Shown here: positions 5,863 through 16,625 of the stretch, piece by piece | Numbering within the stretch: the first letter of the stretch is position 1 | Layout of the letters: every line of letters begins with the position of its first letter | The notes under the pieces: model-generated | Seen by the model: the letters and a program-made list of their open reading frames with translations, nothing else | Told to the model about the DNA's origin: nothing | Database searches by the model: none | Translations under genes and position numbers: made by a program | Virus genome (UHGV): UHGV-1607792 | DNA from: a virus | Length of the DNA: 16,625 bases | Reading direction: 5' to 3' (one strand)

Positions 5863-7473
5863 TCAACATTCTACGTACGAGCCATCAGTGTTTTCAACAA
5901 GCACTTTGATGCTCAAGCCTACATCTGTGCCAGCTTGGCTTCTGATAAGTGGCACAATGTCTTTTGATTGTGGCGCAATGTTGCCCATATTATCAATGTG
6001 CTCGTCATTGCCAATGAACTGCACATCTACTGATTTGATGACATCAAGCTCTTCAAGTTTTGCGATTGCAGCAGAACGACTAACGAATGTCGATGCATTT
6101 GACCATGAGTCTTCTACAAATGCTTTTGCAGCATCAAGCAATTGCTGCTTGACGTCTTCTATGTTTTGCAGTACTGCAGTCTTTTTGACAAGAATGAGCA
6201 TTTGATAAAATTCAAGCTGCACAGTGTCAAATTGCACATCAGTTAGCAACACATAGTCACCAGTGTTTTCGATAGCATTGTTCAGATATTGTCTATCTGT
6301 AGAGTCGATAGTGAATTCTGCTATTGGCAATGACCAGTAGTCATACACTATTGAGCCTGCTTTGACATACTTGTCTGCAATGTTGGGCACCAACACGACA
6401 TGAATTGTTTGAGTCTCTGTATTTGACCAGACATCAAGTATCTTGTACTGACCAAAGCGTGACATGAATGCTCTGATTGAATCTGCTGAGTGCAACACAA
6501 GTGCCCTGTTAATTGAGCCTGCATGTGAACGTATAGATTCGATGTCTTCACCATTGTAACCACCTACAATGTCTGTCAACTGTTCAATGACTAATACACC
6601 CTTTGGACTTACTGCAGTAGTGTTTGCATCATACATGCCATTGACCCATTCAAATGTTGCATCATTGTCAATCAAAATGTTTCCTGCATAGCCCTCACAT
6701 GCAGTGTATTCTACATTGACGACTGCATTTTGTGCAGGAATTTGACCAGCAGTACCATTGCCAAACACAATCTGTAGTTTGCCATCATATGACCAGCGTT
6801 CAATGTACCCCTTGCTGTATCGGTCCATTTCATCAAACCCTGCATAGCGAGTCCACAGCTCATTGCCAACTGTGACAGTCAATGAATCTTCAGATACAAT
6901 CAAGTTGCGTTCTTCGATAGTGAATGTTGTCATTGACTCACCATCAGAAATATATTGCTGAGACTTGCGTTCACCTTGTCTAACTGCGAATTCATATCGT
7001 ACACCAGTCAACTCATTGTTGATGTTGAGTTGCGCAAAGTCTTGATGCATATCGATGTAGTACATCAGCGAGTTCTCTTTGCATTTAATTGCTGCGTATC
7101 GTTTAATGAACACAGTTGGACCAAGCTCTTTGACTGCGTCATATGAAAAACTCAATGCAATTTTGCCCGATGCTGCAATGCCACCAACACATTTGTAACA
7201 TGCAAGCTGTGCAAGTCCTCGTACAGATGCGGTCTGTTCTGCAGTAAGCAAGTTGTTTTCTTTTGTGCCTACTACAATTTGCGTAAAGATGAGTGACGCA
7301 AGTTCTCTGAAACTCTGAACAAGAATTCCAAAAATTGTGTACTTACCATATTGTTTCTTTGTAGAGTTCAGCAAATTCTGCAGCCAAGTATCTATAGACT
7401 GTGACACACCTGAATATGACATCTGCATTTTCTGCATCCATGTCATATTGTCACGAGTGTTATTTGTGCGCAT
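5863..7473 (-). CDS. hypothetical protein, 536 aa
   Basis: ORF track starts at a TTG (7596) and translates the tandem repeats and terminator palindrome; the first ATG is 41 codons in (MRTNNTRDNMTWMQ...), at 7471-7473. A-rich leader without SD. Stop TGA at 5863-5865. Confidence 0.8.
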   Translation of the reverse strand: MRTNNTRDNMTWMQKMQMSYSGVSQSIDTWLQNLLNSTKKQYGKYTIFGILVQSFRELASLIFTQIVVGTKENNLLTAEQTASVRGLAQLACYKCVGGIAASGKIALSFSYDAVKELGPTVFIKRYAAIKCKENSLMYYIDMHQDFAQLNINNELTGVRYEFAVRQGERKSQQYISDGESMTTFTIEERNLIVSEDSLTVTVGNELWTRYAGFDEMDRYSKGYIERWSYDGKLQIVFGNGTAGQIPAQNAVVNVEYTACEGYAGNILIDNDATFEWVNGMYDANTTAVSPKGVLVIEQLTDIVGGYNGEDIESIRSHAGSINRALVLHSADSIRAFMSRFGQYKILDVWSNTETQTIHVVLVPNIADKYVKAGSIVYDYWSLPIAEFTIDSTDRQYLNNAIENTGDYVLLTDVQFDTVQLEFYQMLILVKKTAVLQNIEDVKQQLLDAAKAFVEDSWSNASTFVSRSAAIAKLEELDVIKSVDVQFIGNDEHIDNMGNIAPQSKDIVPLIRSQAGTDVGLSIKVLVENTDGSYVEC

Positions 7474-7498
7474 ATCAGTTAATTTGTTTGTATATGTA

Positions 7499-7572
7499 TT
7501 CGAATGTGCACACATGAGAATAGGTCTCTTCGAATGTGCACATATGAGAATAGTCTCTTCGAATATGCGCAC
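7499..7572. repeat. 2.5 tandem copies of a 30-bp direct repeat; each unit stacks three palindromic cores (TTCGAA, TGTGCACA, CATATG)
   Basis: Unit 1 at 7499-7528: ttcgaatgtgcacacatgagaataggtctc. Unit 2 at 7529-7557: ttcgaatgtgcacatatgagaatagtctc. Partial unit at 7558-7572: ttcgaatatgcgcac. Lies between a terminator and the ATG of the 536-aa gene. Confidence 0.8.
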
Positions 7573-7603
7573 AAAAAGAAGAGCTTGCATATGCAAGCTC
7601 TTC
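7573..7603 (-). terminator. intrinsic (Rho-independent) terminator candidate
   Basis: Perfect 26-bp palindrome gaagagcttgcat|atgcaagctcttc (7578-7603), giving an 11-bp stem and ATAT loop, followed on the minus-strand transcript by UUUUUGUG. About 43 nt downstream of the 127-aa gene stop. Confidence 0.7.
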
Positions 7604-7645
7604 CATCGCCAAAACCTATCTAATTATGGAAACACCTCTGAAAGG

Positions 7646-9784: not shown

Positions 9785-10285
9785 TTATGAAAGCTGAGCC
9801 GTAGTGTACCAAGTTAAGTCAGATTCATTGTACGTCAATGCAATTGTAAGAGCTTGACCAAGTTGCTGTGACAATTGCTTACATGAATCAATGAATGCTT
9901 GCATATCTGCATATGACTTTGTGTAGAACATGCACCATTCTGTTGTATTGACTGCGACATTATGAACATCTGCAAGATGACAGACTTCTACAGATGATAC
10001 ATTAAAGTCTGAGCCATCTTCATCAACATGATGCACATTGTTTGCGCACCAATACTGATACAAACGAGCTTTGTCTGATGCAGTCATGTCAAACTGCATG
10101 CGTTGAGCAATTGATTCATCGACATTATCAATGAATTGCTTTGCTGACTTTGATTCAAGCATCGCATGATGCAGTGTATGATTTGCATGCCAGTCTGGAG
10201 TGCCGATTGCTACGCTAAGCTGATTTTCAAACACAAATTGTTGTGCTTGAGCTTCTTCGTAGCATTGTGTCCATGTCTTTGTCAT
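9785..10285 (-). CDS. hypothetical protein, 166 aa
   Basis: ORF track starts at a TTG (10315); the first ATG is 10 codons in (MTKTWTQCYEE...), at 10283-10285. First gene after the terminator that follows the sigma gene. Confidence 0.7.
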   Translation of the reverse strand: MTKTWTQCYEEAQAQQFVFENQLSVAIGTPDWHANHTLHHAMLESKSAKQFIDNVDESIAQRMQFDMTASDKARLYQYWCANNVHHVDEDGSDFNVSSVEVCHLADVHNVAVNTTEWCMFYTKSYADMQAFIDSCKQLSQQLGQALTIALTYNESDLTWYTTAQLS

Positions 10286-10342: not shown

Positions 10343-10384
10343 GCAAAATAAGGCCAGACTACTCGGTTGAGCTTGTCTGGCCTT
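10343..10384 (-). terminator. intrinsic terminator candidate after the sigma factor gene
   Basis: 10-bp GC-rich stem aaggccagac (10350-10359) / gtctggcctt (10375-10384), 15-nt loop, followed on the minus strand by AUUUUG. Begins 19 nt after the sigma TAG. Confidence 0.55.
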
Positions 10385-10402
10385 TCAAATGTATCTTGCT
10401 TG

Positions 10403-11299
10403 CTACAGTGTTCCGCAAAGTAATTCACGTAAATCCATGCCAGCTTGTGTGCTGTATTGAGCAATCATGTTGCGTTCAGCTTCAGACATGCTCCAATAGA
10501 TTTTGTGAAAACTGCGTTTGATAATTGTATGAATGCCAGATGTGCTACAGTTGAGCTTCTTTGCAAGTTCTGCATGAGTTAGCAAATCAGCATCGCCAAG
10601 GCCATATACATGCGTAAGTACGAGCTTTTCATTTTGTGTGAGCTGTTCAAATGCTCTTTGCAGAATCTTTGTGTTGCGTTTGTGAGCATCCTCGATTTCA
10701 AGAACTTCTTGACCTGTTTTGAAGTCTGACCTCAAATCATTCTGAACTGGCGACCATGTATCGCCATCTTTGTCAAGTGTAGTGTCATCTTTGCTGGTGA
10801 ATTGTTTGACTTCAAGAACTCTTTCATATGCTCCACGAATACCAGTAGATAATTGTTGACTTGTCAGATTGAGTTCGTCAAGCACATATTTCTTAATCCA
10901 AGGATATGCATATGTGCTAAACTTTGCTTCACGAACTCCTGCAGGCAATACGCCTTCTACGTAATTCTTGGCTGCTATTGACAATCCAAGATTGCCTGCT
11001 TGAATGACATCATCCAATGGAACCGAGCGTTTGCCAGATGCGAACCATAAGCTTCGTGCAACTGATATGACCAATCTTAAACAAGATTTGATAAGAGCTT
11101 CACGATTTTCTTGAGTCTTCTTGAATCGAGTAACATCACAATATCGCTTTGCAGTAGCCAGCGATTTGACTTCTTCAGGAGTAAGCTCATTCTCCATCCT
11201 CATTTGCTTGAGCTCTTCCTTTGTGTATAGACGTTCTCTTGTGATTCTACCTACGTCCTTTACGTAGCCTTGATTGATTTGTGAATTTGAACCTGCCAT
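10403..11299 (-). CDS. sigma-70 family RNA polymerase sigma factor, 298 aa
   Basis: Region 2 signature: LRLVISVARSL...LDDVIQAGNLGLSIAAKNY...KFSTYAYPWIKKYVLDEL, compared from memory with the E. coli RpoD segments LRLVISIAKKY / LIQEGNIGLMKAV / KFSTYATWWIRQAI. Region 4 helix-turn-helix: LTHAELAKKLNCSTSGIHTIIKRSFHKI. ATG at 11297-11299, TAG at 10403-10405. Flanked upstream by a 133-bp AT-rich gap and downstream by a GC-rich hairpin terminator. Confidence 0.85.
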   Translation of the reverse strand: MAGSNSQINQGYVKDVGRITRERLYTKEELKQMRMENELTPEEVKSLATAKRYCDVTRFKKTQENREALIKSCLRLVISVARSLWFASGKRSVPLDDVIQAGNLGLSIAAKNYVEGVLPAGVREAKFSTYAYPWIKKYVLDELNLTSQQLSTGIRGAYERVLEVKQFTSKDDTTLDKDGDTWSPVQNDLRSDFKTGQEVLEIEDAHKRNTKILQRAFEQLTQNEKLVLTHVYGLGDADLLTHAELAKKLNCSTSGIHTIIKRSFHKIYWSMSEAERNMIAQYSTQAGMDLRELLCGTL

Positions 11300-11432
11300 G
11301 GTTGTGTAACTTATTTAGTTTTAATTTGTTATATAAATTTAATCATTTTTTGTCACATATGAAAATGTTTTGCACATTATTTTCACATAAAGTGTAAAAA
11401 AGTTATGAACATTTTGTTAACACATGTAGACA
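11300..11432 (-). promoter_or_regulatory. AT-rich intergenic region upstream of the sigma gene; candidate promoter and repeated TTTTG(T)CACAT elements
   Basis: 133 bp with no ORF. On the minus strand: GTGACA (plus 11351-11356), 17 nt, TATAAC (plus 11328-11333), about 25 nt upstream of the ATG, resembling a sigma-70 -35/-10 pair (5/6 and 5/6). Three spaced copies of ttttg(t)cacat(a/t) on the plus strand. The promoter assignment is inference only. Confidence 0.4.
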
Positions 11433-13016
11433 TCAAACCATTTCATTCAACTTGTCGACATTCTTTTTAGCGTCTGCACTTTGTACAAATGCATAGACAT
11501 TATCATAGACTTTGCTAATTGCTGCATCTGTGTAATCATAGAAGCTGTGTCGAGTTCTTGAAGTTCTGCCACCTTTGATGCCAAGTGATGCTTTGTCAGA
11601 ATCTGATGGTTTCCAATATGTTCGCCCAAACCCCGTAGATAGAATCATACTTTCCACGCCAGACCTATCTCGTGGCATAGCATGTTTCAAATGGCAAGTT
11701 ACAATGAAGTCAGTTGGAAAGTCATCATAGCCAAGCTCACTTGATGCAGGTTGAATGTCAGTCTTCGTTAAGATAAGATTGCCAATGCTTGCTATGGGTC
11801 GAAGTGGGTTTCCTAATAGCAAATGCCATTCTCCGATGGCGTCGCCCTTTAGCAAGCTATTCATAACAGGAATTGCTGGTCGACCAATAGTGTTCAAGAA
11901 TTTCGCAACAGCAAAACGTTGAAATGCAAGTTTAGCAATCTGCTGCAATTTTTGTTTTGCTGCTTCTTTTCCACCTCCGCTTGCATTCATAATGTTTTGA
12001 GCAATGCCTTTGAAGAAGTCTGTGATTGAGTTGAATGAACCATCAAGCGCATCTTGAATGATTGTAGATTCAAGTTCAAGTGCTTTGTTCCAGAACACTG
12101 ATGGCTGTCCGCCAACCCAGTAGCGACCACCTCCCCAAAAACGCGCGTCATTGTATGTGCATTGCATCACATTGCTCAACAAGTCAAGCATTGCTGTTTT
12201 GGGATTGATTCCATCAATCGACTTCAATGAATAAAAGAATTTGACAGTCAATTCATGCTCAAAGTTCAAGCCGACATCACGAATATGCGTTTGTGTAATT
12301 GAATCAATTGGGCCATAGACTTTATTGTGGTCATGTGTAGGGTCTATTGACAGTCGTGCTTTGCCACGCATTTGGTCTTTTGCATACACTGGGTCCATCA
12401 ATTTTGCCACTCGGCCCATCCAGCCACTAATGCCATAATTGCCTCCACTGTCACCACGCATTTCGCCTTGCTCCAATGCAGCAGACAATTCTTTCCAACG
12501 CATGCCAAAACTGAAGCTCAACAAATCTTCAAGTTTGTTGTTTTCACCATCAAACCACGTAATCATATGAGCGATTTCAGGTGTTTGCTGAACTGTTGTG
12601 TTGAAGATGTCATCTTGACATGGCTCAGCAAATCTGCGCAATGTTATGAGTCTGTTGTTTGGGATTTGACCAAGAAATCTGCAATATGCAAAGTCTTGCC
12701 AATCGTATGTTGATGCGCCAATGGGGTTGTTAATGATATTTGCTGCAGTAGGCGTCAAGTATTGCAGGCCTTGCAAGTCTTGGTCAAAGTACACAGTTTT
12801 GCCATCAGGCAATTGCGGTGCTGCAAATAGATTCCATGCATTGAACAAAGACTGCACACCTTGTTTTGACGCATCTTCTGCGCCACGAGGCATATCAGCA
12901 TTGAGTTTCTTTTCATAAAACCCATGCTCATAGTCTGTCTCTTGTGCAAATGCACCAGTCAGTGTGCTACTATCTGCATTGAGCTTATTGTCTTTTGGCG
13001 GAGCTATTGTAGCCAT
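11433..13016 (-). CDS. hypothetical protein, 527 aa (Gly/Trp-containing; function unknown)
   Basis: ORF track starts at a TTG (13046); the first ATG is 10 codons in (MATIAPPKDNKL...), at 13014-13016. TGA at 11433-11435. Confidence 0.8.
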   Translation of the reverse strand: MATIAPPKDNKLNADSSTLTGAFAQETDYEHGFYEKKLNADMPRGAEDASKQGVQSLFNAWNLFAAPQLPDGKTVYFDQDLQGLQYLTPTAANIINNPIGASTYDWQDFAYCRFLGQIPNNRLITLRRFAEPCQDDIFNTTVQQTPEIAHMITWFDGENNKLEDLLSFSFGMRWKELSAALEQGEMRGDSGGNYGISGWMGRVAKLMDPVYAKDQMRGKARLSIDPTHDHNKVYGPIDSITQTHIRDVGLNFEHELTVKFFYSLKSIDGINPKTAMLDLLSNVMQCTYNDARFWGGGRYWVGGQPSVFWNKALELESTIIQDALDGSFNSITDFFKGIAQNIMNASGGGKEAAKQKLQQIAKLAFQRFAVAKFLNTIGRPAIPVMNSLLKGDAIGEWHLLLGNPLRPIASIGNLILTKTDIQPASSELGYDDFPTDFIVTCHLKHAMPRDRSGVESMILSTGFGRTYWKPSDSDKASLGIKGGRTSRTRHSFYDYTDAAISKVYDNVYAFVQSADAKKNVDKLNEMV

Positions 13017-13042
13017 ATCTTCAAATGTATTTAGGATATGTA

Positions 13043-13081
13043 CCAAACAAACAAAAAGCTTGACTTATTCAGTCAAGCTTT
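13043..13081 (-). terminator. terminator-like hairpin overlapping the stop codon of the 163-aa gene
   Basis: 11-bp perfect stem aaagcttgact (13055-13065) / agtcaagcttt (13071-13081) with 5-nt loop, followed on the minus strand by UUGUUUGUUUGG. The TAA of the 163-aa gene is at the stem/loop junction. Confidence 0.5.
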
Positions 13082-13556
13082 GTTCAGAAAGTTCAATAAT
13101 TTGTGTTTCGTATAGTCGTCTTAGTTCATCAAATCTTACACAGTTTTTGTCATACAGTGTAGCAAGACCTTGCAATGCTTGTTGTTTGCTTGTCCATACA
13201 ATGTCAGCAGTCAAATCCCATAACCACTTTTGTGCATAATAGAACTTCCAGTCATGCCAAAATGTTTGCGTAGTGATTTGTTGTTCTTTATCATCAATGT
13301 AGACAAAGTGATGCGTTGGATTGCCACTTTCAAGGTCTACAAATCTGAATGTTTTGTTTGCTACATGCTTAGCAATCCATTCGTCAGATGCAATGACTTC
13401 TTGCAATGCACATTGATAATAGTAACGCTTTGCAATGTCAAAGTGACGAACAACTACGCCACGAAACAATGTCCATAGCCATGGCTCTTCTTCTGAACTT
13501 CTAATCCAATAAACTTCTTGATTTACTGGTAGAAAATCGTAGTGAACGAGGTCCAT
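13065..13556 (-). CDS. hypothetical protein, 163 aa, Trp-rich
   Basis: ATG at 13554-13556, 3 nt after the TAA of the upstream gene; its own TAA (13065-13067) sits inside the loop of a terminator-like hairpin. Confidence 0.7.
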   Translation of the reverse strand: MDLVHYDFLPVNQEVYWIRSSEEEPWLWTLFRGVVVRHFDIAKRYYYQCALQEVIASDEWIAKHVANKTFRFVDLESGNPTHHFVYIDDKEQQITTQTFWHDWKFYYAQKWLWDLTADIVWTSKQQALQGLATLYDKNCVRFDELRRLYETQIIELSEQSLTE

Positions 13557-13559
13557 TGC

Positions 13560-14138
13560 TTACAGATGCACATTGACACTTGTCACAAGGTCGCAATCAA
13601 TCAATGCTTTGAGCGTGTCAATTTCATTGTAGCCAAATGCGCGTGTAGCAGCAAGCACATGATTGACATCTACTGCAGCAGTAATGTCGACTACAACAGT
13701 CTTGTCATCTTCAAGTGGCTGCAAACGCTTGATGAGTTGATGCAGCATATCGTCTGCAGGTGCGCTTAGCTGCTGTACTGGATATGCCGGTATATGCTGC
13801 ACTGGTTCAATTGGTGATGTTATTGGCGATGTAGTTGCTGGTGACACTGGTGCAATTGGTACTACATGCTGTACTGGTGCGATGACTTCAGATACAACAC
13901 TGCCATCTGCAGCAGTCGTAGATACACTTGGAATCGCAATTGGCTGAGAGAACACGTCGTCTTGAGGGCGATTCCATGTTTCAATTTCAGACAATGCATA
14001 AAGACGATTTTGACTGTCCCATGCCTTATCAGCTTCTTCGTCAATTGCAACAATTGTTCGAATTTCTGCCGTTGCTGGCCTATCGCCGTTTTCGAGCTGT
14101 TCAATGACTCTGATAGGCGCTATTGATGTTCGTGCCAT
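13560..14138 (-). CDS. hypothetical protein, 192 aa, with Pro/Val-rich low-complexity linker
   Basis: ORF track starts at a TTG (14195) inside a palindromic intergenic region; the first ATG is 19 codons in (MARTSIAPIRV...), placed at 14136-14138 by codon arithmetic from the track. Linker PVQHVVPIAPVSPATTSPITSPIEPVQHIPAYPVQQ. TAA at 13560-13562. Confidence 0.7.
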   Translation of the reverse strand: MARTSIAPIRVIEQLENGDRPATAEIRTIVAIDEEADKAWDSQNRLYALSEIETWNRPQDDVFSQPIAIPSVSTTAADGSVVSEVIAPVQHVVPIAPVSPATTSPITSPIEPVQHIPAYPVQQLSAPADDMLHQLIKRLQPLEDDKTVVVDITAAVDVNHVLAATRAFGYNEIDTLKALIDCDLVTSVNVHL

Positions 14139-14167
14139 GTTTGGATTGTTTTTTATATTGTACAATA

Positions 14168-14239
14168 TGCAAAGTGCTTTTGCACTTTGATGCAAAGTAC
14201 TGCGTACACAACATGCAATGCATAAATTTGCATTTATGC
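14168..14239. promoter_or_regulatory. palindrome cluster in the leader of the 192-aa gene
   Basis: caaagtgc-tttt-gcactttg (14170-14189) with a near-copy caaagtac (14193-14200) that could pair with the same central arm; and gcataaat-ttgc-atttatgc (14220-14239). Confidence 0.5.
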
Positions 14240-14257
14240 TGCTGTTTTACGCTGAGC

Positions 14258-14297
14258 ACCCTGCGTAAAATAGTGAAATGCTTATTTTACGCAGGGT
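14258..14297. other. perfect 15-bp inverted repeat (stem-loop) immediately downstream of the BACON-repeat gene; no U-tract on either strand
   Basis: accctgcgtaaaata (14258-14272), 10-nt loop, tattttacgcagggt (14283-14297). Coordinates confirmed against the frame of an overlapping track ORF. Possible terminator, RNA processing site or protein-binding palindrome. Confidence 0.6.
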
Positions 14298-14310
14298 ACG
14301 TCAGGTTAAA

Positions 14311-16625
14311 TTATCGTATGATGAATGGTTTGTTGGTATCTTCAATAATCATTGAGCCGATGCCATGTAACTCTTGAGTAACCTCGACAGATACGTCTTG
14401 TGCAGTGTTGTACGAGCACTTGAATGCTGCAACTCGACTAAATGCGTCAATGTCTGAGTAACTGAGTTCATCGACTTGCATTGAGATTTCACCAATTGCT
14501 GGCGTAGTCTTTGATGGTGTCATTGTGATGTCATGCAGCCAGCCCGGATTGCCAACTATGACTGCTGTCAATGATTCGCCATCAATTGGGTTGATGATTT
14601 CATAGTTGAAGCTTAAAGTCTTTGCAGTATCATCAGTTGTTGCCGATGCAGGTGTAATGTTGATTGTTGTTACGCCCTTAGCAGCTTGAACAACTTGTGC
14701 TGTGACATCTTGAGCATTGATGTGAGAGAACTTAACTGAACAACTGCGTTGTTCTGTCGTCAAGTTGCGGTCACATTCAATAGTCAAGTAGCCCCTGCCA
14801 GTATTATCGTCATATTCGAAGTTTGTATCGGTAAATGTGCCATCATTGTCAAGCACTGCATATGACAACTGCTGGCCTGCAATTGGGTTGCCAACAGTAA
14901 TTTCGAACTGTACTTGAGTATCTGTCGACTTCAATTGAGCATTCATTGGTTCGACAGTTATCGTTGACATGCCTTGAGCTGCTTGTGTGATGCTGACCGT
15001 TACATTGTCAGCAGTCATGTATGACAGTCTCAAGTATAAGTTACGAGTAGCTGTTGCAGTGTTGATGTCAAGCGCAAATTGTATTGTGCCGGCTGACATA
15101 TTAACTACAGGTTCGCCAACAAAGCCAGAGCCCTCTGTCGTAACTGTCAGTGTTTCACCTTCAATAGGGTTGATGATGCTAAAGTTAACTGTGAACGAAC
15201 CGCCATTAGCTGCTGCGTTGATTGTCAATGGTTCGGCATTGATGACTGTAGCTTCTTTAGCAGCTTGAGTAAGCAAGACTGCTACATTGTCAGCAGTTGG
15301 ATATTGCAGTACAATATTTGCTGTACGAGCAGTTGTTTGCAATGTCTTGTCATAATCAAATGTAATCTTGTCATCAGCAACTTGAACGTTGTGAATCCAG
15401 CTTTCTGTTGCATATGCAGTGACTGCTGCACCAGCAAAGCCATTACGAATTTGATATGCAATTTCAGCTGAACCACCTGCTGCATTGAGTGACATAGAGC
15501 TTGTAACAATGATTTCTGGCCTTGTTGAAACACCTGTACTGTATTGAACTACAGATGCAATTACACGAGGCTCAAATATGACAGCATTTGCAGAGCCGCC
15601 AAATGTAGGTGTTGCAATCACATAGATTGGCCAAACTCCACTTGATGCGACATTACGTAAGATTGCTTGATAATGCAGTTCATTGCATGCATCTTGCAAT
15701 TCACTCCACGTTTTTGTAGTGTCAATTGATGTCAAGCATGCTGGCAATACTGCGCATGTTGATGGCTTATCCGCATCAATGGGCATTGCATTGCCACCTG
15801 CTATTGGCTTGTAGCTCAAGTCAACTTTGACTGATGCATAGCCATTGCCATACACAATGAATGGTATAGTGATATCGAACAAAATATCGACTGTTGCAGG
15901 CATGTTCAGATATGCAGGCAGCGGTATGAGTGTTTGCATTGCTGTCGTGCCTGGTACGTGGTCATCGAATGATTCAACATACACAGGTGGTGTCAAGTCA
16001 TCTTTATGCGCATATTCTGCGTGAGTGTGGTCTGAATGCGACACTGTGCTTGCATAACCAGAACCACCAAAGTTCTTATTAAATGCAGAGCCCTTTGCTT
16101 CTTCAGTTAATCTGCCAGAGCCATCATATGACAATACTGTATTTGATGCACCGACACCTGCTGCAAGATGATTTGAGCCATCAATGAAGACATGTTTGTA
16201 TTGACGTTCAAACAAATGAGCATCAAAATTGTCAAATATCGAATTGAACAACTTTTTGACTGCAGATGCTGTAGGCAGATGTTTGTTTGCATTTGCGCCA
16301 TCGATAATGATGCTTGACCAATTGTCTGAGCTCTTGAAGATGCTAAGAAGCATATCAACAACTTTGCCAGTAGCATCTGTGCCAAGAACACTTGCACCAG
16401 GCAATTTCATCAATTGTAAGTCGACTGTTGCAGCAAGTTTAAGCAGCTGTTTTGTCAATGTCAGAATGTCTGTGACAGCACCAGCATCTGACAATGCAGC
16501 AATGCGATATGACTGATTGATGAGTTGCGCAAACTTATACGCACGAATGAATGACTCTCGCTTTGCTTCTGCATCCAAGCCTTTTGCCAAGAACAACTCA
16601 TCATATTTCAGATTTGCATATGACA
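14311..16625 (-). CDS. large repeat protein with four tandem BACON-like/Ig-like domains at the C-terminus; 5' end lies beyond window end
   Basis: The frame is open to the last base of the window; the track's start at 16596 is a TTG and upstream codons continue in frame. TAA at 14311-14313. Four homologous 50-100 aa repeats, each ending (T/N)A(D/Q)(D/N)V(T/S/A)V.(V/I/L)TQ(A/E)(A/L).G, with internal NPI(E/A/D)G and R-T/S-A motifs. Confidence 0.8.
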   Translation of the reverse strand, partial: SYANLKYDELFLAKGLDAEAKRESFIRAYKFAQLINQSYRIAALSDAGAVTDILTLTKQLLKLAATVDLQLMKLPGASVLGTDATGKVVDMLLSIFKSSDNWSSIIIDGANANKHLPTASAVKKLFNSIFDNFDAHLFERQYKHVFIDGSNHLAAGVGASNTVLSYDGSGRLTEEAKGSAFNKNFGGSGYASTVSHSDHTHAEYAHKDDLTPPVYVESFDDHVPGTTAMQTLIPLPAYLNMPATVDILFDITIPFIVYGNGYASVKVDLSYKPIAGGNAMPIDADKPSTCAVLPACLTSIDTTKTWSELQDACNELHYQAILRNVASSGVWPIYVIATPTFGGSANAVIFEPRVIASVVQYSTGVSTRPEIIVTSSMSLNAAGGSAEIAYQIRNGFAGAAVTAYATESWIHNVQVADDKITFDYDKTLQTTARTANIVLQYPTADNVAVLLTQAAKEATVINAEPLTINAAANGGSFTVNFSIINPIEGETLTVTTEGSGFVGEPVVNMSAGTIQFALDINTATATRNLYLRLSYMTADNVTVSITQAAQGMSTITVEPMNAQLKSTDTQVQFEITVGNPIAGQQLSYAVLDNDGTFTDTNFEYDDNTGRGYLTIECDRNLTTEQRSCSVKFSHINAQDVTAQVVQAAKGVTTINITPASATTDDTAKTLSFNYEIINPIDGESLTAVIVGNPGWLHDITMTPSKTTPAIGEISMQVDELSYSDIDAFSRVAAFKCSYNTAQDVSVEVTQELHGIGSMIIEDTNKPFIIR
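14362..15405 (-). repeat. tandem array of four protein-level repeats (BACON-like beta-sandwich modules) inside the 761-aa CDS
   Basis: Approximate residues 398-745 of the track protein. Repeat ends: ...NVAVLLTQAAKE / ...NVTVSITQAAQG / ...DVTAQVVQAAKG / ...DVSVEVTQELHG. Repeat starts: ATVINAEP / MSTITVEP / VTTINITP. Diverged at nucleotide level. Confidence 0.6.

Follow-up and report, generated by a model that had tools for sequence, protein, structure and literature searches.

Phage sigma factors that take over the host RNA polymerase are textbook biology. Here we describe a candidate of this kind, a sigma-70 family gene on the minus strand of UHGV virus genome UHGV-1607792, at positions 10403-11299 of a 16,625-nucleotide (nt) stretch of DNA (the window, by which we mean the whole stretch analysed). 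The closest described proteins are gp1 of Sphingomonas phage PAU and ORF23 of Chryseobacterium phage MA9V-1, the latter annotated as an RNA polymerase sigma factor; both phages are jumbo myophages of Bacteroidota. The two proteins share with the window sigma factor a KFSTYAY.WIKK motif, the loss of the sigma3 domain, a C-terminal G.D motif and an upstream TAnnTTTR box, but at 362 and 387 amino acids (aa) they carry extra N- or C-terminal segments that the 298-aa window protein does not have. Sigma factors in jumbo phages that lack their own polymerase are already recognised (PMC7824862, PMC13282480), and the gene described here adds a branch from gut metagenomes to the clade of PAU gp1.

With regard to mode of action, the most likely working analogue would be the sigma-70-type factor of phiEco32 (gp36) and of phage 7-11, which redirects the host core polymerase. 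It recognises a single 9-bp element (tAATGTAtA) at middle and late promoters, and its own gene has promoters of host type as well as of phage type (PMC4331800). The likeness is one of action; unlike the window phage, these phages have enterobacterial hosts, an anti-sigma partner and another promoter motif. In Bacillus phage SPO1, the host sigma factor reads the early genes and is then replaced by phage sigma factors (gp28, gp33/34) in a cascade (PMC13401047). SPO1 belongs to an unrelated phage lineage, and its bipartite promoters combine a -35 and a -10 element of their own. The late promoters of T4, which consist of a single AT-rich element near genes, TATAAATA, are read by gp55, an unrelated minimal sigma factor. 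The jumbo relatives of the window phage belong to a wider T4-like group (PMC7824862). A phmmer search with T4 gp55 at E values up to 10, run on the ORFs of the window, of the related loci and of the complete PAU genome, found nothing, a negative that is weak evidence because gp55 diverges fast.

A virus-borne sigma factor of the PAU gp1 clade

A sequence-only reading of the window had proposed a virus-encoded sigma-70 family factor, citing the peptides KFSTYAYPWIKKYVLDEL and LRLVISVARSL and signatures of regions 2 and 4. The open reading frame (ORF) runs from ATG to TAG, on the strand that holds all credible genes of the window, and both peptides are found in its 298-aa translation. Both domains also pass their Pfam cut-offs (Sigma70_r2, 33.1 bits against 24; Sigma70_r4, 27.8 bits against 24.1). 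The protein matches PHROG 351, 'RNA polymerase sigma factor' (4.7e-25), and TIGR02937, the general NCBIfam model of the sigma-70 superfamily (67 bits; cut-off 42.9). A family profile aligns with solved RpoD chains in the PDB (E 7e-14) from the segment before region 2.1 through region 2.4, with a weaker second stretch in region 4, and hhalign matches residues 36-266 to small cellular sigma factors with a probability of 99.7%, about 38 columns of the sigma3 region being absent.

From these comparisons, the protein has sigma2 at about residues 62-146, preceded by a region 1.2-like helix, and sigma4 at about residues 200-270. A disordered linker (147-194) lies between the two domains, and the C-terminal tail (271-298) is specific to the clade. 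An AlphaFold2 model built on an 86-sequence alignment has a mean predicted local distance difference test score (pLDDT) of 69, with values of 72-90 in sigma2, 76-93 in sigma4 (83-93 in its helix-turn-helix) and below 50 in residues 147-194. The predicted fold thus includes the sigma2 and sigma4 domains on which the earlier proposal depended.

When aligned to E. coli sigma-70, DDVIQAGNLGL in region 2.2 corresponds to DLIQEGNIGL, and KFSTYAYPWIKK corresponds to KFSTYATWWIRQ; these are the core-binding and -10-melting motifs. Both DDVIQAGNLGL and, in region 2.3, KFSTYAYPWIKKY are near-invariant across the clade, PAU gp1 included. The same alignment indicates that the equivalents of F427, Y430 and W434 are retained, that W433 is replaced by Pro and Y425 by A, and that K, L and D take the place of Q437, T440 and R441, the residues that read position -12. 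A 6-residue insert lies ahead of region 2.3. Judged from its sequence, the gene encodes a real virus-borne sigma-70-type factor, which would bind the host core polymerase and initiate transcription in a promoter-specific manner.

The family to which the protein belongs is small. Among 5.8 billion, about 14 protein clusters fall within it (43-96% identity, plus three at 30-44%), followed by a gap to cellular sigma factors. PAU gp1 and MA9V-1 ORF23 belong to the clade, at tblastn E values of 1e-17 to 1e-23 and 28-33% identity (1e-17 for PAU gp1 and 4e-18 for MA9V-1). A hidden Markov model (HMM) of the family matches PAU gp1 at 2.5e-91, though gp1 is part of the alignment from which that HMM was made. 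In addition to the similarity of the core, the columns of G287 and D289 are common to the window protein and the PAU gp1-like clade; they fall in a conserved C-terminal tail, AGxDxR..LC, that is not present in cellular sigma factors. The complete PAU genome contains exactly one sigma-70-type ORF.

Gene neighbourhoods agree with this placement. Both PAU gp1 and MA9V-1 ORF23 lie near the same baseplate genes, gp14-like and baseplate-wedge (gp17-like). The window's 536-aa baseplate-wedge, 436-aa and 527-aa proteins have homologues, 21-46% identical, in jumbo myophages, with neighbour-gene homologues in Sphingomonas phage PAU, Chryseobacterium phages MA9V-1 and MA9V-2, Tenacibaculum phages pT24, PTm1 and PTm5, Flavobacterium phage MaF61 and the Prevotella Lak megaphages. 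The viral origin proposed earlier is borne out by these baseplate and tail genes with counterparts in Bacteroidota jumbo phages. The host of PAU is actually a Sphingobacterium (PMC3738902), so all cultured relatives infect Bacteroidota. A megablast search of the window against GenBank phage genomes found no DNA match, and IMG/VR contains no close relative, the best being PAU at 32%. Species genomes in GTDB gave only unrelated cellular sigma factors of Cloacimonadales, and thus no prophage copy. The source is an uncultured large gut phage related to PAU, and the window makes up virtually all of the 16.6-kb metagenome contig from which it comes.

Placement among sigma groups

The sequence-only reading had regarded the sigma group as unassignable. 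It is now possible to narrow this down, in that the protein has an RpoD/RpoS-like front half (regions 1.2-2.4), no region 1.1 and no folded sigma3, but it remains true that no standard group fits. Regions 1.2-2.4 and region 4 can be aligned with those of RpoD and RpoS, the cellular group 1/2 factors, from which the protein differs by lacking region 1.1 and a folded sigma3, by the insert before region 2.3 and by changed -35-reading residues. Groups 1 and 2 combine region 1.2, sigma2, sigma3 and sigma4 (with region 1.1 in group 1), whereas here about 38 sigma3 columns are deleted and residues 147-194 are disordered. Group 3 (FliA, SigB and sporulation factors) has a folded sigma3 between sigma2 and sigma4, which is likewise missing.

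Sigma factors of the extracytoplasmic function (ECF) type, group 4, consist of sigma2 and sigma4 only, without region 1.2, and are usually about 170-220 aa long. The two-domain layout of the window protein agrees with this group, and its pass of TIGR02937 comes from a general superfamily model. However, its N-terminal part of about 60 residues aligns to region 1.2 of RpoD/RpoS, and its nearest sequence matches are group 1/2 factors, not ECF factors. The more specific NCBIfam models (RpoD, RpoS, RpoH, FliA, SigK, SigBFG and sporulation) all score the protein far under their cut-offs, with 40-67 bits against 350-780 for RpoD and RpoS, and Pfam finds neither region 3 nor region 1.2 in any clade member.

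A conserved transcription unit, open on its 5′ side

Start codons were corrected using homologue lengths, the gene calls of the source contig (ENA ERZ27261429 k119_176883) and the positions of terminators and of a promoter-like motif described below. The TTG starts of the longest ORFs at 7596, 10315, 13046 and 14195 are probably wrong, with ATG codons at 7473, 10285, 13016 and 14138 used instead. We also compared six syntenic loci, namely the window and five contigs whose sigma factors are 55-62% identical to that of the window; about 20 kb of each gut phage is covered by these comparisons.

An AT-rich gap of 133 bp upstream of the sigma gene had been noted from the sequence, as had a GC-rich hairpin terminator downstream, and both are there. 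The gap, or leader and promoter region, lies at 11300-11432 on the minus strand and can be aligned across the six loci. Its GC content of 0.22 (0.41 in the window as a whole) is the lowest of any gap in the window. The hairpin begins 19 nt past the stop codon, at 10384-10344 (minus strand), with arms AAGGCCAGAC and GTCTGGCCTT followed by a T-run, TTATTTTG. Its folding energy is -27.2 kcal/mol (z = -5.6), and none of 200 shuffled sequences folds as well. Hairpins with T-runs follow the sigma stop codon in all six loci, with unrelated stem sequences, so it is the structure and not the sequence of this terminator that is conserved. Gene order, both gaps around the sigma gene and the terminator are kept in 6/6 loci.

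The sigma gene is not, as had been thought, the only one flanked by a long gap and a terminator. Longer gaps of 172 nt each occur at 14139-14310 and 7474-7645, and two more hairpins with T-runs stand at gene boundaries on the minus strand: one at 13055-13081 (z = -4.0), ending the unit before the 527-aa gene, and one at 7577-7604, ending the operon downstream of sigma. In addition, the gap between the 527-aa gene and sigma, which measures 112-184 nt, yielded no terminator-like hairpin followed by a T-run in any of the six loci. The terminator-bounded unit thus comprises two genes, that of the 527-aa protein and sigma, which are separated by a conserved promoter-like non-coding region. Of the insulated, separately transcribed single-gene unit that was originally envisaged, the 3′ side therefore holds, given its conserved terminator, and the 5′ side does not, being open to read-through from the 527-aa gene.

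In distant relatives this layout dissolves. In one of them (L090) sigma is followed by a gap of 24 nt, in MA9V-1 it overlaps the next gene, and in PAU a tRNA array follows. The MA9V-1 overlap and the PAU array indicate that only the gut clade has the tight arrangement bounded by terminators.

A host-type box upstream of the sigma gene

Within the aligned leaders, the invariant columns upstream of sigma spell TAA.TTTA (TAAWTTTA). In the window this box, TAAATTTA, lies at 11334-11341 (minus strand) and is the invariant core of a conserved block, GATTAAATTTA (11334-11344). Housekeeping promoters of Bacteroidota have the -7 element TAnnTTTG, with which the box agrees at all fixed positions except the last base. 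A TAnnTTT[AG] box occurs upstream of 10/10 clade sigma genes, nine of them 41-93 nt from the ATG and a weaker one, in L090, at 107 nt; in MA9V-1 and another relative (L089) the box is exactly TATATTTG. Boxes of this type have a density of 0.0101 per nt in the gaps before sigma, compared with 0.0011 in other gaps of the same loci, a 9-fold difference. The pattern of conservation suggests that this host-type, -7-like box is the promoter of the sigma gene.

The leader can also be read as a bipartite promoter (11328-11356, minus strand), with GTGACA (11356-11351) and TATAAC (11333-11328) separated by 17 nt, at 10/12 matches. We demoted this candidate and favour the -7-type box, because the best-conserved bases fall into the bipartite spacer and spell that box. 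Neither of the two promoter classes described in the next section occurs at a normal distance upstream of sigma. A generic scan of the window for sigma-70 promoters gave 61 sites with 46 expected, barely above chance, and was not used.

The leader also contains, at about 11345-11390 (minus strand), three direct repeats ATGTG[AC]AAAA within an imperfect inverted repeat, and a related locus (L003) has three AAGTG..AAAA repeats at the matching place. One block of the leader, TTTTCATATGTGAC, is similar to ATTTCCATATGTCAAA upstream of the MA9V-1 sigma gene. An operator or a -33-like element would be conceivable roles for these repeats.

Promoter classes that the sigma factor may read

The sequence-only reading had held that a phage sigma factor implies a private promoter class and a temporal redirection of host polymerase. 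Both are plausible here, the candidates being a TACATAT-type motif (class B), TACATATAMAAAC, before virion operons, and a bipartite class in relatives. The TACATAT motif has two exact copies in the window, each immediately following a terminator, with a corrected ATG 25-27 nt further on. One (TACATATACAAAC, 10312-10300, minus strand) is 27 nt before the ATG at 10285, at the head of the downstream operon for the 166-, 144-, 436- and 127-aa proteins. The other, also TACATATACAAAC (7498-7486, minus strand), precedes the start codon of the baseplate-wedge gene (ATG at 7473) by 25 nt. A variant, TACATATCCTAAA, lies at 13030-13042 (minus strand), 26 nt before the ATG at 13016 of the 527-aa gene; read-through into sigma probably originates here. 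With up to two mismatches the window contains seven matches, compared with 1.25 expected. Across the six loci, 23 of 54 plus-strand copies of TACATA[TA] fall in the 5.7% of sequence that is intergenic, and start-proximal copies are mostly 25-37 nt upstream.

In PAU the motif's core is TTATACATAT, of which the plus strand has 83 copies and the minus strand 32; 43 are intergenic, where 5.9 are expected. Copies precede the genes for the major capsid protein, portal, sheath, protease and wedge, and also some DNA-metabolism genes.

The bipartite class was recognised in PAU as AACTGAAAC-N17-(GTAG)TATAAT, with 28 intergenic sites versus 2.5 expected. Terminator hairpins often carry its -35 part in their loop, and the sites precede small early-type genes and genes for topoisomerase, ligase and helicase. 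In the gut phages, bipartite sites stand before a gene for a protein of about 200 aa, for example as TTGCAA-17-TATAAT; in the window the site is GTGCAA-17-TACAAT (14185-14157), before the 192-aa gene. The -35 elements differ between PAU (TGAAAC) and the gut phages (TTGCAA or GTGACA), and the sigma4 recognition helix differs likewise. PAU also carries about 25 near-identical cassettes, CCCTCGGAAACTGAAACTTTCGAGGGTTTCGTAGTATAAT (e.g., at 25502, 35801, 91510 and 102749), each a terminator-like hairpin with TGAAAC in its loop, followed by TATAAT. In T4-type phages, mobile 'promoter-early stem-loop' cassettes would be comparable elements.

That the sigma factor reads the TACATAT class, with or without the bipartite class, is to our minds close to an even proposition. 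In its favour, conservation from PAU to the gut clade extends to region 2.3-2.4 as well as to the TACATAT core, and a phage sigma factor that reads a single-block promoter is on record as a precedent. Recognition of the bipartite class only is less probable; it is favoured by the retention of sigma4 and by the differences between PAU and the gut phages in both the -35 sequence and the sigma4 recognition helix. Recognition of both classes is improbable. These promoter sets, namely the TAnnTTTR box at the sigma gene, TACATAT before virion genes and the bipartite sites before early-type genes of PAU, are in any case by-products of the analysis that offer candidate promoters for Bacteroidota phages.

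Proposed mechanism and alternatives

Taken together, we consider it probable that the gene is a functional phage sigma factor of the PAU gp1 clade, which would be made early by the host, would redirect the core enzyme to phage promoters and would be reinforced by late read-through; its roles, timing and core binding are drawn from the comparisons above. Soon after infection, host RNA polymerase with sigma-A would start at the TAAWTTTA box and produce a short sigma mRNA ending at the hairpin. The phage factor would then displace the host sigma factor on core polymerase and direct it to phage-specific promoters that the host factor does not read. The best candidate targets would be the TACATATAMAAAC sites right after terminators before virion operons, possibly joined by the TGAAAY/TTGCAA-N16-18-TATAAT class. 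Late in infection, polymerases that started at the TACATAT-type site upstream of the 527-aa gene would run on into sigma and add to the supply, given that nothing terminates between the two genes. The logic of phiEco32 and 7-11, in which a one-block promoter is combined with a sigma gene served by host-type and phage-type promoters, provides a precedent for this mechanism.

Several observations weigh against it. The TACATAT class is a single block of about 13 nt without a conserved -35 element, although the sigma factor keeps sigma4; a bipartite class would suit a protein composed of sigma2 and sigma4 better. The core of the motif, TATAAAAA, is moreover similar to the T4 late promoter. We therefore lowered our claim that TACATATAMAAAC is simply the late promoter of the sigma factor, in view of the missing -35 element, the likeness to T4 late promoters and the PAU copies before DNA-metabolism genes. 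The residues that read the -35 element in E. coli (R584, E585 and R588) are T, S and H, and the sigma4 recognition helix is variable within the clade, so that -35 specificity is unreadable from sequence; together with the changed -12 readers, this means that the E. coli consensus specificity is not simply transferable to the protein. With regard to the sigma gene's own promoter, the box ends in A, not G, in 8/10 phages, and no -33 TTTG was found at canonical spacing from the TAAWTTTA box. Finally, the Bacteroidota host is a presumed one, suggested by relatives and by a sub-threshold BACON match (see below).

The alternative that survives best is that the sigma factor reads the bipartite class only, for middle genes and perhaps its own gene, while the TACATAT sites would be the late promoters of a system like that of T4, in which a divergent factor of gp55/gp33 type acts with a sliding clamp. 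We consider this unlikely, if worth keeping in view. The phages belong to the T4-like 'group 2' of jumbo phages, which carry both sigma factors and gp33 orthologues (PMC7824862), and PAU has a clamp loader. The one-block form of the TACATAT class, with its TATAAAAA core and no -35 element, would be as expected of such a system, and the window has bipartite sites before the 192-aa gene (GTGCAA-17-TACAAT, 14185-14157) and, weaker, before sigma. The complete PAU genome, on the other hand, yielded no gp55 homologue in the phmmer search, weak as that evidence is.

A second alternative follows from the GenBank record of PAU. In JQ362498, gp1 (PAU 94-1182) is labelled 'internal capsid vertex protein (mango) subunit 2', with gp10 as subunit 1 of the same mango protein and gp9 as 'capsid decoration protein (banana)'. 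The sigma factor might thus be made late by read-through, packed into the capsid and injected, and then read TGAAAY/TTGCAA-N17-TATAAT promoters that sigma-A of Bacteroidota cannot, the late TACATAT promoters being served by another, undetected factor. We rate delivery in the virion as quite unlikely. Apart from the label, it is favoured by the promoters of PAU: host-type TAnnTTTG is not enriched in intergenic sequence (9 against 8.0 expected; 42 against 36 +/- 5.5 in a relaxed form), whereas the 28 bipartite intergenic sites (2.5 expected) precede small early-type and DNA-metabolism genes, and the only PAU sigma factor with a sigma4 able to read a -35 element is the gp1-type one. The sigma gene also lies within a module of virion genes, open to late read-through, and the conserved tail AGxDxR..LC sets it apart from cellular sigma factors. 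The label, the lack of enrichment of host-type promoters and the location among virion genes together are what speaks for a packaged, injected sigma factor.

Set against this, literature searches found no paper describing either the 'mango' capsid protein or a packaged sigma factor, and the PDB has no chain for PAU gp1 or gp10. Neither gp10, the partner named in the label, nor the neighbouring gp9 has a detectable homologue in the window. Furthermore, a host-like -7 box stands at every sigma gene of the clade, which fits early synthesis by the host and makes delivery in the virion unnecessary. It is improbable that a packaged factor lets the host core read E. coli-like -35/-10 early promoters, unused by sigma-A of Bacteroidota, from the onset of infection. 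If it did, the packaged sigma factor would play the role of the packaged RNA polymerases in N4, phiKZ-like and crAss-like phages. The capsid annotation is a concrete lead to a virion-delivered sigma factor, and cultured relatives, PAU and MA9V-1, exist.

We looked for counterparts of gp10 and gp9 in the window's 527-aa and 761-aa proteins and found no similarity. The true homologue of the 527-aa gene is followed in PAU by gp270, an 'internal capsid protein', which does not resemble a sigma factor. The labels of gp70, gp142, gp154, gp199 and gp270 in PAU are also those of internal capsid proteins; neither a publication nor a structure in support of these labels was found.

Lastly, a protein that is no longer transcriptional, whether a sigma-derived capsid protein or a decoy that ties up host core, is very improbable: the capsid annotation of PAU gp1 and its scores under the Pfam cut-offs for regions 2 and 4 would fit, but the core-binding and -10-melting residues (region 2.2, and region 2.3 with the equivalents of F427, Y430 and W434) are the most conserved parts of the clade, the sigma4 helix-turn-helix is modelled at pLDDT 83-93 and the window protein passes both cut-offs.

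Other features of the region

The 527-aa gene upstream of sigma (11433-13016, minus strand) encodes the best-conserved protein of the region, which is 39-46% identical to PAU gp269, MA9V1_019 and its counterparts in pT24 and PTm1, and about 30% identical to a protein of a Lak megaphage. It has no match in Pfam, PHROG or the PDB, and none of its homologues carries a functional annotation. The 761-aa protein (14311-16596, minus strand) has a sub-threshold match to BACON (23.4 bits against a cut-off of 25), a weak hint that its product may be a Bacteroidota-associated, carbohydrate-binding surface protein. Its counterpart in a related contig (L005) matches Pfam Head_fiber_dimeric.

Searches of the window with Rfam and a tRNA scan gave no match, and this includes a strong hairpin in the gap at 14139-14310 (minus strand), for which Rfam likewise had none. 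The stem of this hairpin, at about 14300-14255, is a perfect 17 bp (ACCCTGCGTAAAATA ... TATTTTACGCAGGGT; -49.1 kcal/mol, z = -6.7), with no T-run after it. After it come a second palindrome, GCATAAAT..ATTTATGC, then the GTGCAA-17-TACAAT site and then the 192-aa gene.

A tandem repeat at 7499-7573 (30 nt x 2.6 copies, 89% matches) adjoins the TACATAT copy at 7498-7486 on its upstream side (minus strand), with units that end in CACATTCGAA. This repeat may be an upstream activating element. In L005, a similar duplicated block, GCATATTAGAATATTCATGCATAGCATTCATAT, is present in two copies before the TACATAT motif of that contig. The same contig has further intergenic tandem repeats at 13429-13521, 13927-14187 and 15811-15885, namely TAATGCACATA in about four copies, AGAGAAAGAATT in three and GTATCGTTATAA in about five.

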